DNA of 64,000 nucleotides from Paraspadella gotoi (Eukaryota; Animalia; Chaetognatha). Positions 3,001-45,460 of this stretch are shown here, in pieces. The stretch lies in the NCBI GenBank assembly GCA_051294375.1, contig CM119268.1:16945947-17009946 (forward strand), given 5' to 3'. How positions within the stretch are numbered: position 1 is the stretch's first letter; the number at the start of each line of letters is the position of its first letter. The position numbers were made by a program, and so were the translations under genes. The notes under the pieces are model-generated. The model did no database searches and was not told the DNA's origin. It saw only the letters and a list, made by a program, of their open reading frames with translations.

Positions 3001-6000
3001 TGGGCGGAAAAGTTTTATTTATTATTTATGTAGCGAGAGGAAGGAGAATATTATTTATTTATATGTTAGGATTTGAAAGAAATGATTTTGAGAGGTTATG
3101 ATGATTGAATAATTGAACTATGTTCGAATAACTTTTTTATTTTCCTTATTTTCCTTTCAAACGGAAAAATCTTATTTTTAGCCTCTTTATCAAGAATTAA
3201 TGAAGAGACCAGAAGGAGAAGGGTTGATCACTGACATCTGACCAGTCCAATCCGCGTGGGTAGGGTAATCTTGCTGGGACTAGAATTTTGATCATAACCT
3301 CTGACCTTGCGGTTCTGGGTTTGTAACACCGTTCGCCATCGATGATTGGAAATTTGGAACAGCCCTTTGCAACGAATAACGAAGTTTGTCGACTACGAGA
3401 TTTTCTGTCACGCGAGGCCAATTTTTATGAAAGAAAAAAAAACGACTACTAAATATATTGGCAATATTGCGTCTCCATTTATCGGAATTTTCTTCATCAG
3501 ATTTTGATAAAAAATAAGTCAACGTCGCCAAAAATATCTCGACGAAAATAACGGAATCTCGTTCGTCTCCGGATGAAAAAAATGTTTGTTTTTTTTGCAT
3601 CTGTCGTTTCCGTTCGTCAATTTGCACAAATCGATACCATTACGTCTCGATTTTTTCAGGTCAAGATGAACTCGTACGATGAGCATGAAGCTCGCCTTTC
3701 AGTCTTCTTATTATACTCGATAATGTCGAGTTGACGTCTAAAAAGCTTTAGTGAAAGATAGATATGCAACAGTAATATTAATTGTATTATTATTCTTATA
3801 TAACTAACTTCTTAAATAACTTATCATTATTAAAAGTATTTTTGAAATAGTAAAATAAAACTTCCATAAAAAGGGTATCAAAAGATATGAGAAATAATCA
3901 AAAGAAGACCGCAATCTCATTTGAAATTAACCACAAGTTACTCTGCAACAAAATTTCTTCCCTATCAATCCTAATCAAATTCTTTGCGTCTCGTTGTTCA
4001 ACTAGTATCATCATCAGCGTCATCATCATCATCATCATCATCATCATCATCATCATCATCTTCATCGTGTCGTCAGCTTCCCTCCTCTCTTCCTCCCCCT
4101 GACTCACCAATCGTCATCAGCGTTGCCTCCAAGATCCACTTGGCCTGCAGGTCCATGTCGTGGGAGCAAGTAAGCTTGGCGACGTTGGTGCGATTGCGAA
4201 AGGACCCGTAGTCGACGATTTTGGAAGTGAAGAAGAAGTGGGAATGCATGAGGGCGCCGAGGAAGATGATCAGGGCGAGAGCGAAGCGGGGGCGTTCTTG
4301 GGGGTAGTAGGCGCGGGAGCTGAAAGAAGGGGGGAAGCGATGGGATTGGATCGGTTAATTGGTCGGTTTGTTTGTTTGTTTGTTTGTTAAGTAGGTTTCT
4401 TGATAGTTTGGTTGATAAGCTTTTGTGGTAGTTTGATTTTTTAATTGTTTGTTTGATTGTTTGGATCGTTGATTGCTTAATTTCTTGTTGGTTCTCTGAT
4501 TAGTTGTTTGATTGTTTCATCGCTGGATGGCGGAAGGAAATAACATTATATATTAAGGGAGTGGTCTTTTCATACAATTGAAACATTTTTTGAAATATTA
4601 TACCACTTCATTGATAGGGAAGCCAGGTACTCTGGGTGTGAATAAACTCGACTGTGAGAGAGTCTTGATTAAAAGCTTGCAGGGGCCGGCTATGTCATTA
4701 TCTTGTAAGAGTGATGGTGGCCTTAAACCACCAAAGCCTGTCCAAGTCAGGGGCAAGTTAGCTTATTTATTAAATGAATGGAAATTTTTATATTGGTTGT
4801 ACCAATGTACCATTTTCATAAAAATGTAATGTAAAATCAAGAGAAAAAAACTGAAATGAAAACAACATGAATTTCTTCACCTGATGGGGTAATAGACGGC
4901 GACGAATCTCTCCAGCGAGAGGACGACGATCGTCCACACGGAACTGAACTGGACGCTCGACTCGACGAATTGAACCACCTTGCAATACCACAGAGACACC
5001 AATAGATGGGCGTAGGTGGTGAACTGCTTGGTCAACAGTCTGTACAGCGTTGACCACAGGACGATAGTGTCAAGAATCGCCAGGGCATTCAGGTAAAACG
5101 TGACGCAGAGGGCCTGGAGTGGGACGTCGGGGAAGAGGAAGAAGAAAAAGGGAAATTTAATCGAAATAGGAAAAAATTCAGCAAAAAAATGGAATAAAAA
5201 GAACAAAGGAACAAATATGAGGAACCCAAAAAGAACAGAGTGTGTGGGAGAAAGAGAAAGAGGAAAATAAAACGAAAATATTTATTTTCAAATAGATTTT
5301 ACTCTTAATTTTAAAATAACTGCAAATGAGAGTAAATGACGGTAAAATAAAATATATACGTATACATTATTAACTTAATTTACTGACGAAATTAATGAAA
5401 AAGAAAGTGAAGAATAAAGTTGTGAAAAGGAAGTTGAGGAAAAATTTAAAAAAAGTAAATAAAAAGAAAAAATAAGAAGAATATAATTAAAGACCTTGAA
5501 TCGTTTGGACTGAAGGACGACGAAGGAAACGAGATTCCCCACCGTCCCGAAGAAGATGACGACGAAATAAGCGACGGTGATGAGATCGAAGCCTCTGAAG
5601 GGATTCACGCGACTCGAGTTCGTCGTCGATCGGGAAGAGTTCTCCGCCTCCGCGCCATCTTTTGAGAATCGGGGTTCAGGGTGGCGGGAAGAATGAGAGG
5701 TTTGATTCATGTTATCACTTATGGTAATCGAAGGCAATTGTAAACATCATCTCGGATGACTGAAACCTCATCATCTTTATCATCGTAATTAACATCGTGA
5801 TCATCGTTATCATCATCTCGTTCATCCTCATCATCGTCATCATCATCAGCATCAATTCATCAACATCATCATCATCTCCACCACCTTTTGTCGTCATTGC
5901 CATCGTCATTGCCTCCATCGCAGCAGCCGTCGTTCTGAAAGTCTGATTGACTGATTCTAATCGTCCCATCGTTTGATTGATCGATTCTAATCGCGTGATT

Positions 6001-6092
6001 GATTGATTGATAAAATCACACCCGCGTGTCGAAGAGTTCGTCTCGTTTCCCGCCAAAACGGTGGCGGTGACGTTGTCGAAGAAGAGGCTCAT
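1..6092 (-). CDS. Class A (rhodopsin-like) peptide GPCR, FMRFamide/TRH-receptor-like; multi-exon, runs off the window and across gaps
   Basis: Exons with GT-AG ends: N-terminus with many NxS/T sequons from 6092 to TM1 (..FGTVGNLVSFVVL.., donor after 5495); 5113-4881 (FYLNALAILD; LSLERFVAVYYP = TM2-TM3/ERF motif); 4319-4108 (TM4, ECL2 Cys); ~843-711 (SHSINFIMYVI = TM7); candidate helix-8 exon 120-1 (ARRVPGVQFRLAY). The TM5/TM6 exon was not found and may lie in a gap. The junction between the two N-terminal frames (~5890-5720) is unresolved. Confidence 0.85.
845..1114. other. Assembly gap (270 N); further N spacers at 678-702, 1809-1833, 39876-39885, 53512-53521, 59869-59893
   Basis: N runs seen directly; the fixed 25-N and 10-N lengths indicate a scaffolded or gap-filled draft. 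Confidence 0.99.
1879..2853. mobile_element. Non-autonomous inverted-repeat-bounded element (MITE/Helentron-like) with a telomere-like satellite core
   Basis: Left end TTCTAGTT(tggt)TGGCGACTTCGCC is the imperfect inverse of right end GGCGAAATCGCCATAACTAGAA. Four GGCGA-NN-TCGCC palindromes sit near the left end. Internal CCCTAA-based array. Confidence 0.6.
2036..2817. repeat. Higher-order minisatellite: AACCCTAACCCTAA blocks alternating with three recurring ~30 bp spacers
   Basis: Spacer order C-A-B,C-A-B,C-A-B',A'-B',A', then degenerate (AACCCT)n/ctactc units. Confidence 0.9.
4671..4807 (+). mobile_element. Dispersed short repeat, family B (SINE-like 3' part), copy 1
   Basis: Closely similar to 37439-37580. 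Diverged copy at 36465-36574 and tail-only copy at ~45580-45615. Ends in hairpin ATTGGT-TGT-ACCAAT. Confidence 0.8.
4699..4760 (+). ncRNA. Twister-like ribozyme, type-P5 permutation (family B copy; L4 one nt short)
   Basis: P5 TATCTTGT/GCAAGTTA; AA; P2' GAGT; GA; T1 TGG/CCA; P1 tggcct; TAA; P2 ACC; T2 AC/GT; P4 CCTG/CAGG. Confidence 0.6.
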
Positions 6093-45050: not shown

Positions 45051-45270
45051 TTCCGTTCACGATTTCCTGTGACGTGAATCGTTGAGACGCGAGAATAAAT
45101 TTAGTTTTGTTTGAGGAAAATCTAAGCGAAGGAATTAAAACTACCTCGCTTTTTATTCGTCCATTATTTTATTTAATTTCGTGACGGACATATAAACTTT
45201 ATATTTAAAGGACTTCATGTCGCGAAAAAAAAATCCAGTATGGTGGACTAAAATCCACCAACCGTTCATC

Positions 45271-45460
45271 GGTGGCCATTGGTGCCGCAGGCAAGTCATT
45301 CGCCTCCCAACTCAAAGGTCCGGGGTTCTAGCCCGGTGACCGCCTAGCAATTAAGAGGGACGGGACGCTTAACCCGCCTCTAACTCGGTGTTCCAGCCTG
45401 ATCCGAAGCTCAGGGACTGCTTATATTGAACGGTTCTGTCACTAACACATGACAATAATT
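45271..45460 (+). mobile_element. tRNA-derived SINE (family C) carrying a twister-like domain
   Basis: tRNA-like head 45271-45344 (acceptor-like GGTGGCCA/TGACCGCC, T-arm CCGGG-GTTCTAG-CCCGG), immediately followed by a structured body. Confidence 0.75.
45347..45420 (+). ncRNA. Twister-like ribozyme, type-P5 permutation (family C)
   Basis: P5 GCAATT/GACTGC; AA; P2' GAGG; GA; T1 CGG/CCG; P1 gacgct; TAA; P2 CCC; T2 GC/GC; imperfect P3; P4 CCTGA/TCAGG with loop TCCGAAGC. Confidence 0.7.

Follow-up and report, generated by a model that had tools for sequence, protein, structure and literature searches.

A twister-type fold with a short, bulged P2 and a palindromic P1 segment in three repeat families of a chaetognath genome

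Can a ribozyme of the twister class do with three pairs in its helix P2 and with almost no P1? The question is raised by a stretch of 64,000 nucleotides (nt) from the chaetognath Paraspadella gotoi (contig CM119268.1, positions 16,945,947 to 17,009,946; hereafter the window), in which a sequence-only reading had reported covarying motifs in three repeat families, here called A, B and C. The answer proposed here, held with slightly better than even confidence, is that a P5-permuted twister fold with a bulged P2 of 3 base pairs (bp) and a palindromic P1 lies in the terminal repeats of three high-copy retroelement families and would cleave itself mainly when two copies pair on one transcript. The carriers had been described simply as retroelement families, which is incomplete. 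They are two units resembling long terminal repeats (LTRs) with a predicted tRNA-like promoter for RNA polymerase III (Pol III) (A and B), and one Penelope-like end (C).

The type-P5 permutation in the three families

The window holds four strict P5-permuted twister motifs and one decayed copy, spread over the three families (Table 1). The four strict motifs, all on the + strand and each with a predicted catalytic GA, lie where they had been placed; the decayed family C copy had been overlooked. The elements of the motif follow one another as P5, AA, the 3' strand of P2, GA, T1, a 6-nt segment, UAA, the 5' strand of P2, T2, an optional P3, P4, the loop L4, P4, and P5. This strand order is the type-P5 permutation of the twister. 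Like the known type-P5 twister (RF02684; PMC5408937), the motif ends in P5, carries GA and NAA at the active site, has a T1 of 3 bp and a T2 of 2 bp, and contains a P4 with a U..AA loop and an optional P3. Here and below, published work is cited from the portions of text and supplement that were accessible.

Both T1 (GGA:UCC in A, CGG:CCG in B, UGG:CCA in C) and T2 (GC:GC in A and B, AC:GU in C) were confirmed pair by pair. In A, B, and the two strict copies of C, all of these pairs are Watson-Crick, with letters differing between families, and T1, T2, and P4 covary across families. The AA linker, GA, and UAA are constant and P5 is unrelated between families, as had been described. GA and the NAA of the internal loop L1 are present in 4/4 strict copies. 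P4 with its loop (U, T1 strand, AA, T2 strand) is intact in A and B. Two details of the earlier description need correction. The letters AAG of the loop are not constant, as the copy at 4699 has a single A in L4, and the P4 pairing, sound in A and B, contains an A.A mismatch in the copy at 37467, which keeps both L4 As. Neither strict family C copy is intact; the consensus of loose contig ends for this family has both L4 As and a paired P4 strand.

The resemblance to a twister might be due to chance or to the bias of the reader. A strict descriptor matches the window five times. Block-wise dinucleotide shuffling, repeated 100 times, yields 0.02 matches per shuffled window on average, and 98 of the shuffles contain none. 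Four of the five are the GC-rich twister motifs. The fifth, an AT-only match near 7023 on the - strand, was counted as chance. In a five-row alignment, double changes occur at 9/15 pairs, a value that 1/500 shuffles reach, and this count is descriptive rather than an independent test because the structure was read from the same rows. Since the motifs are probably homologous modules, the three families give few independent covariation events.

Conservation within the families was followed in public contig sets of the same organism from three studies. Of the five model mismatches in the family B copy of the window, P3 holds three and P5 one, and the fifth arises when the P1 hexamer is paired with itself. 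The majority letters of the family (79-99% of depth in run X4) differ from the window copy at exactly these five positions, and all five changes restore Watson-Crick pairs. Apart from 45365, none of the 19 family B variants at 10% or more falls in the AA linker, GA, T1, UAA, P2, T2, P4, or L4; the remaining ones inside the motif are a G.U-compatible change at the P5 end and one loop change. In family A (40 of 68 variants seen), the variants listed include C>T at the bulged base (10-16%), a change of the first P2 pair from G.U to A-U (7-27%), changes at four P3 loop positions, and a one-base deletion in the G-run beside P4 (21-31%) that leaves P4 intact.

For the chance explanation speak single-strand folding no better than in shuffles (z -0.5 to +0.6, a measure uninformative for a pseudoknotted fold), Rfam scores below threshold, and the AT-rich match passing the descriptor. 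The excess of GC-rich matches over shuffles, the 5/5 pair restorations in family B, and the same architecture in the Naiad tails described below have largely refuted it, and its probability is minute. A conserved twister-type fold is very probable. The fold is real and conserved; the variant has apparently not been described in print, and the known ribozyme has a new carrier here. The earlier claim that structure rather than sequence has been kept is supported; the function that it implied is a prediction from sequence.

A covariance model built from the five window copies recovered no further copy in the window. Its best other match (11.4 bits, E 0.06), at 45709-45724 just 3' of family B, consists of GA, three bases, a GC palindrome, and TAA. 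This site has single-copy read depth, which points to chance or to a very old remnant.

Table 1. Positions of the repeat elements and of their twister parts in the window
Feature	Positions	Strand	Remarks
Family A element, 286 bp	29123-29408	+	TG..CA ends; TATA 4-bp duplication on both sides; likely solo LTR (Helenus-like)
Family A tRNA-like region, predicted Pol III promoter	29179-29250	+	A-box-like 29186-29197; B-box 29230-29240
Twister variant A, intact	29259-29336	+	Descriptor, pairwise check; Rfam 17.1 bits
Variant A, 5' parts	P5 29259-62/29333-36; AA 29263-64; P2 3' strand 29265-68; GA 29269-70		Bulge 29266; predicted catalytic GA at 29269
Variant A, middle parts	T1 29271-73/29319-21; P1 29274-79; UAA 29280-82		P1 palindromic; predicted cut 29280/29281
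Variant A, 3' parts	P2 29283-85; T2 29286-87/29324-25; P3 29288-95/29305-12; P4 29313-17/29326-30		
Family B element, 234 bp	45239-45472	+	TA..CA ends; flanks CCAG/CCAT; likely solo LTR (Helenus-like)
Family B tRNA-like region	45276-45345	+	A-box-like 45280-45291; B-box 45324-45334
Twister variant B, decayed window copy	45346-45421	+	Five model mismatches
Variant B, 5' and middle parts	GA 45359-60; T1 45361-63/45403-05; P1 segment 45364-69; UAA 45370-72; P2 45373-75		Predicted catalytic GA at 45359
Variant B, 3' parts	T2 45376-77/45408-09; P3 45378-85/45389-96; P4 45397-401/45410-14		
Family C copy 1	4668-4820	+	Twister 4699-4760; predicted catalytic GA 4713; one L4 A missing
Family C copy 2	37436-37582	+	Twister 37467-37529; predicted catalytic GA 37481; palindromic P1 37486-91; A.A mismatch in P4; Rfam 20.6 bits
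Family C copy 3, heavily decayed twister, palindrome intact	36457-36582	+	BLAST, 81% identity to copy 1 over 118 nt
Family C 3'-end-only piece, 42 bp	45575-45616	+	BLAST
Family C 3'-end-only piece, 33 bp	32577-32609	-	BLAST, E 2e-5

The short P2 and the palindromic P1 segment

In all copies, the 3-nt 5' strand of P2 faces a 4-nt 3' strand whose position 2 is unpaired (GCC:G(c)GU in A, CCC:G(a)GG in B, ACC:G(a)GU in C), exactly as first read. No copy has four P2 pairs, and the variant departs in this from the 4-bp P2 of solved twisters (PMC5408937). The covariation claimed for P2 holds for its first pair, whereas the other two pairs are invariant G-C in the window, so that the window alone cannot fix the register of the bulge. 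Unlike the known type-P5 twister, the motif further has a 6-nt palindrome without room for a loop in place of P1, a T2 that may be AC:GU, and a position inside animal retroelement ends. The suspicion that a standard model would miss the variant proved right. An Rfam scan of the whole window gave no twister at E<=1. Narrow scans matched Twister-P5 at only 17-21 bits in A and family C copy 2 (Table 1), against a gathering score of 37.6, and gave no Twister-P5 match in B. In the alignments of A and copy 2, one P2 pair is deleted and P1 appears as 3 bp enclosing a loop of zero length.

The P2 variant is supported from outside the window. In the supplement of the Naiad paper (PMC8557442), four consensus tails show, by eye, the same bulged-P2 fold with palindromes replacing P1. 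They belong to the record before Naiad_Bpla, to Naiad_Bpla, and to Naiad_Mphi, all near the 3' end, and to one further match. These tails have the AA linker and a P2 of 3 nt versus 4 nt, with U-A, U-A, C-G, and G.U as first pairs and U, C, C, and A as bulged bases. T2 is AC:GU in three of them and CC:GG in one, and two share the P4 of family C. Two tails show a U.U at one T1 position. In the tails, two palindromes stand in place of P1. The third P2 pair of the fourth tail, U.G, fits the bulged register, but a contiguous register is also possible.

Elsewhere, the exact form was not encountered. Descriptor scans gave 13 matches in viral contigs, 29 in metagenome contigs, and 20 in prokaryote genomes, none with both T1 and P4 paired, and the AC:GU form had no match in the viral contigs; the patterns were narrow (6-nt P1, NCC), and these results concern the exact form only. 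In the open-access full texts consulted, no twister whose P2 is bulged and 3 bp long is described; such variants could be present among the alignments that supplement Roth 2014. Palindromic or dimeric natural twisters are likewise absent from these texts, as are twisters located in LTRs or Naiads. At RTE 5' ends, "truncated but catalytically competent" twisters have been cited as in preparation (PMC7761336) and may since have appeared, and Eckert et al. found no further twister permutations (PMC10085705). The T-variant twisters of Schistosoma Perere-3 (PMC8501958) are also used by a retroelement and have a reduced P1. However, they are of type P1, lie at the 5' end of an RTE long interspersed nuclear element, have the canonical 4-bp P2 in 7/7 tabulated examples, and complete P1 with target DNA instead of a palindrome.

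What had been called a minimal P1 is better read as a self-complementary hexamer for pairing between two copies. No intramolecular P1 stem-loop is present, as only 6 nt are available. The segment, first taken as constant, is constant in length and not otherwise. It is a perfect palindrome in A and in family C copy 2. For family B, self-complementarity was predicted beforehand although the window copy lacks it, and the majority letters confirm it. Only 2.3% of hexamers are self-complementary in this way. Within the hexamer, the outer pair varies across families (C-G, G.U, or A-U) and the middle pair stays G-C. The inner pair, which changes from G-C to C-G, consists of adjacent bases and can form only between molecules.

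Calculated energies point in the same direction. The self-duplex of the hexamer has -10.7 (A), -9.1 (family C copy 2), and -8.3 (B majority) kcal/mol versus +3 to +5 for a lone 1-bp hairpin. In an unconstrained cofold of two A copies, the palindromes pair and P5 is swapped (-72.3 versus -60.2 for two monomers). A twister-compatible A dimer reaches -57.9 versus -39.0 for two twister-compatible monomers, a gain of 19 kcal/mol. Metazoan hammerheads with a helix III of 1-2 bp and a palindromic loop work as dimers; the short palindromic helix III permits tandem copies to cut, and monomeric circles are believed to be spared (PMC4209133). The likeness to these minimal hammerheads of Penelope-like elements and metazoan repeats (PMC4209133, PMC6765202) lies in one helix being a short palindrome predicted to pair tandem copies, by which cutting would be tied to two-copy transcripts. 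In contrast to them, the ribozyme class here is twister, two of the three carriers are LTR-like and not Penelope, and dimer cleavage is only predicted. The palindromic hexamer suggests that P1 may be formed by two copies, as in Penelope hammerheads, and a preference for the dimer is reasonably probable.

The same RNA could also be an ordinary monomeric twister with a vestigial P1, in which 1-2 pairs closing a short loop suffice. Every copy would then cut itself, and the palindrome would have arisen incidentally from a compact, GC-rich loop. Twisters without P1 cleave at near wild-type rate (PMC5408937). The covarying outer pair (C-G, G.U, A-U) and the invariant G-C between positions 2 and 5 are both possible within one molecule, and 25% of hexamers with four G/C inner bases are fully complementary. 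However, the inner pair joins neighbouring bases, which a single molecule cannot do, and it changes between families from G-C to C-G. Longer palindromes with loops of 0-2 nt are retained in Naiad versions, and fast monomer cutting would sever every transcript, circles included, from the promoter region. This explanation is unlikely.

Several points weigh against cleavage by paired copies. According to a review of twisters (PMC5408937), any change in the number of P2 pairs may disturb the active site. B has A-U in place of the "essentially invariant" G-C closing P4, and C has AC in place of the normally conserved GC of T2 (PMC5408937). P1 is dispensable in mini-twisters, which keep a near wild-type rate without it (PMC5408937), and the dimer may therefore not be needed. 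Minor variants of family A break pairs in T2 (29286) and P5 (29262, 29336), at about 1% or less in run X4 and near 10% in run X5. The most stable fold of the monomer hides P2 and T2 in a rival hairpin, and the twister-compatible dimer, computed without T1 and T2 (-57.9), is slightly less stable than two monomers in the rival fold (-60.2). Of the 19 other permutations of the A hexamer, 5 dimerise more strongly and one ties, so that the dimer energy alone is not special.

The fold may also derive from a twister and no longer cut, serving as a dimerisation or packaging signal after the short P2 switched catalysis off. The GC-rich hexamer would then resemble a retroviral kissing loop. The loss of one P2 pair, suggested to disturb the active site (PMC5408937), fits such a role, as does the argument of Kojima 2018 that 5' truncation results when an active ribozyme lies downstream of a small-RNA head (PMC5786205). 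Furthermore, no pile-up of copy ends is seen at the predicted cut among the loose ends listed. Against this role, GA, the AA of L1, the U and AA of L4, T1, and T2 are kept or covary in three families and four Naiad tails, while a mere dimer signal needs none of them, and cutting inside an LTR element does not lose the promoter. A signal without cutting is quite unlikely, and self-cleavage in some form is likely.

The carrier elements

The ends of A and B were obtained from pile-ups of loose contig ends in run X4. In family A, 54 contigs leave at 29123 and 60 at 29408; in family B, 126 leave at 45239 and 176 at 45472. Depth in family A is about 1e6 versus 112 on the flank in the same run. Depth ratios of about 1e4 are not copy numbers, and the contig counts at the ends were used instead, as lower bounds. 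The target-site duplication of A is a perfect TATA in the single copy inspected. In both units, a tRNA-like region lies 37-56 nt inside the 5' end, the twister follows directly, and no T-run occurs inside the repeat. Compared with the tRNA-Lys gene of the window, the region scores 52 in A (0/500 shuffles as high) and 40 in B (5/500). ARAGORN does not call the region of family A as a tRNA. The B-boxes of both hold GGTTC, and the A-boxes match the published pattern only partly.

Sequence 5' of an internal Pol III promoter cannot be copied by the simple route that SINEs (short interspersed nuclear elements) take. Since A and B have fixed ends upstream of Pol III-like boxes, they are probably LTRs. 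A reading as tRNA-headed SINEs was dropped because the reads show these fixed ends, and Helitron and terminal-inverted-repeat transposon readings were dropped because, by eye, the termini are not there. The LTR assignment is weakened by the B duplication, in which 3/4 letters match in the single copy inspected. In addition, the joints and loose ends listed for A and B include no two-LTR form, primer-binding site, or polypurine tract, and the joints include no high-depth end-to-start joint.

A and B may instead be SINE-like or non-LTR retrozyme units, comparable to schistosome Sm-alpha, with tandem source copies cut to monomers by the ribozyme. The succession of a tRNA-like promoter and a ribozyme has a precedent in Sm-alpha (PMC6765202), no internal region of A or B was seen, and individual contigs contain B copies in head-to-tail order (45473>45237, 45478>45237) as well as back-joints of A. 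These tandem joints, however, reach single-locus depth only. Both units also have fixed ends upstream of the tRNA-like region, TG or TA..CA termini, and no tail, with a 4-bp duplication in A, and metazoan hammerhead repeats are without such LTR marks, the one example given having a 15-bp duplication (PMC4918200). The SINE-like alternative is highly unlikely.

As LTRs, A and B are probable members of the Helenus type. Helenus elements (TRIMp3; Kojima 2024, PMC10886601) are non-autonomous elements of the LTR class. Their LTRs are tRNA-like and many occur as solo LTRs; in animals, the duplications have 4 bp and the helper is Gypsy. Like them, A and B have tRNA-like A and B boxes in a unit of 230-290 bp, TG..CA or TA..CA ends (the latter also seen by eye in published Helenus LTRs), a putative 4-bp duplication, and many solo copies. 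Unlike Helenus, A and B have the tRNA-like part near the 5' end, no T-run after it, and a twister fold downstream. In the accessible parts of that paper, ribozymes appear only in one reference title and not as components of these elements, and motif searches and reading by eye of its supplement gave no twister. Two wasp LTRs of its DataS1, Helenus-2_SyJa-LTR and Helenus-2_SyUm-LTR, have the layout of A and B, with tRNA-like boxes near the 5' end followed by a ribozyme-like motif. By eye, this motif reads as a type III hammerhead whose loops I and II complement each other, and the accessible text does not mention it. This suggests that the ribozyme slot in such LTRs may be interchangeable.

Some further features surround A and B. 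In the 3' flank of A (29409 onward), the loose-end consensus opens with eight nearly identical letters in two runs (agreement 0.39-0.46), which could reflect target preference or the start of a shared internal region. An 11-mer with a TATA-like stretch is common to the upstream part of A (29144-29154) and to 19181-19191, 45 nt downstream of the tRNA-Lys gene (19064-19136). With one mismatch it has three matches, a number reached in 4/100 shuffles; it could represent either a promoter motif or the remains of a fragment. The end of family C is linked to the last 20 bp of B by joints (45452-45454, 45616-45617) whose depth is 2-4 times that of a single locus, which suggests that C inserted into B repeatedly or that a chimeric subfamily exists. 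Nothing aligned to the A stretch in run X10 or to the B/C stretch in run X11, both from other organisms, which is no proof of absence.

Family C comprises five pieces with a common 3' end that start at four different offsets, two of them only 33 and 42 bp long, in TA-rich targets. At least 494 flank-bearing contigs end at 45616-45618 in run X4, giving the fixed 3' end. No tRNA-like part was found upstream (244/500 shuffles score as high). No full-length copy was recognised in the window, where no six-frame scan for reverse transcriptase remnants was made. Because Naiad tails carry the same fold, an origin from a Naiad/Penelope-type end is likely. Naiads (Craig et al. 2021, PMC8557442) share with family C a fixed 3' end, 5' truncation, end pieces of 30-40 bp, TA-rich or (TA)n targets, and high copy number, besides the four tails with the bulged-P2 twister, two of them with the T2 and P4 of family C. 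The accessible text reports no canonical hammerhead and does not mention twister. Against this origin, no Naiad coding sequence was linked to family C. Naiads also differ in having two longer palindromes in P1, where family C has one hexamer.

Copy 1 of family C lies antisense in an intron of a G-protein-coupled receptor (GPCR) gene. The flanking - strand exon matches Pfam 7tm_1 (E 4e-7, 30.1 bits versus a cut-off of 30.5); the gene, intron-split and of rhodopsin type, indicates an animal host. Copy 3 abuts a - strand open reading frame. These orientations fit an avoidance of sense-strand cutting, with numbers too small for testing. Apart from the three families, the window contains an imperfect tandem repeat at 2012-2617 with a period of about 140 bp.

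Proposed mechanism and its meaning

The scheme proposed here starts from what was observed: a fold conserved within A and B, its palindrome, the ends of the elements, and tRNA-like boxes. Its further steps are inferred. A and B would be solo LTRs of Helenus-type non-autonomous elements, and C a Naiad/Penelope-type end. Transcription by Pol III would begin at the tRNA-like boxes in the 5' repeat, which holds no T-run, and would continue through to the 3' repeat. The two hexamers would then form a shared P1 of 6 bp with a twister core at each end. Each core would combine the 5' half of one copy with the 3' half of the other and would cut at the U/A of UAA. A unit-length RNA with a 5'-OH and a 2',3'-cyclic phosphate would be released, circularised, and copied by a helper element, while single-copy RNAs such as solo LTR transcripts and the monomer circle would escape cutting. 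The circle would rebuild one full repeat, as in plant LTR retrozymes (PMC4918200, PMC9695139). That circles form is a tentative part of the scheme.

Plant LTR retrozymes (PMC4918200, PMC9695139) resemble A and B in being non-coding and about 300 bp long, with a self-cleaving motif per LTR and a 4-bp duplication (both putative in A and B), many solo LTRs, and a ribozyme predicted to lie in a blocked fold. Unlike A and B, they carry type III hammerheads and, in the text available, no tRNA-like promoter is described; circular RNA is demonstrated there and only predicted here. A wider proposal, still speculative, is that a natural dimer-gated twister with a shared palindromic P1 and a 3-bp bulged P2 has passed, as a module, between Naiad ends and LTR elements driven by Pol III. 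A and B would then be animal LTR retrozymes that make circular RNAs and spare their own monomers.

If the motif cuts, it would overturn the assumption that a twister needs a 4-bp P2 and would provide a natural test of how far the active site tolerates a shorter helix. A two-copy twister, if true, would be the counterpart of the dimeric hammerheads, a small switch sensing concentration or tandem arrangement. It would also supply a ribozyme for Naiads, which were reported to be without one, and would join Helenus, with its tRNA-promoter LTRs, and the retrozymes, with their ribozyme LTRs, in animals. Since Rfam misses the motif, many copies in animal genomes are probably unannotated.

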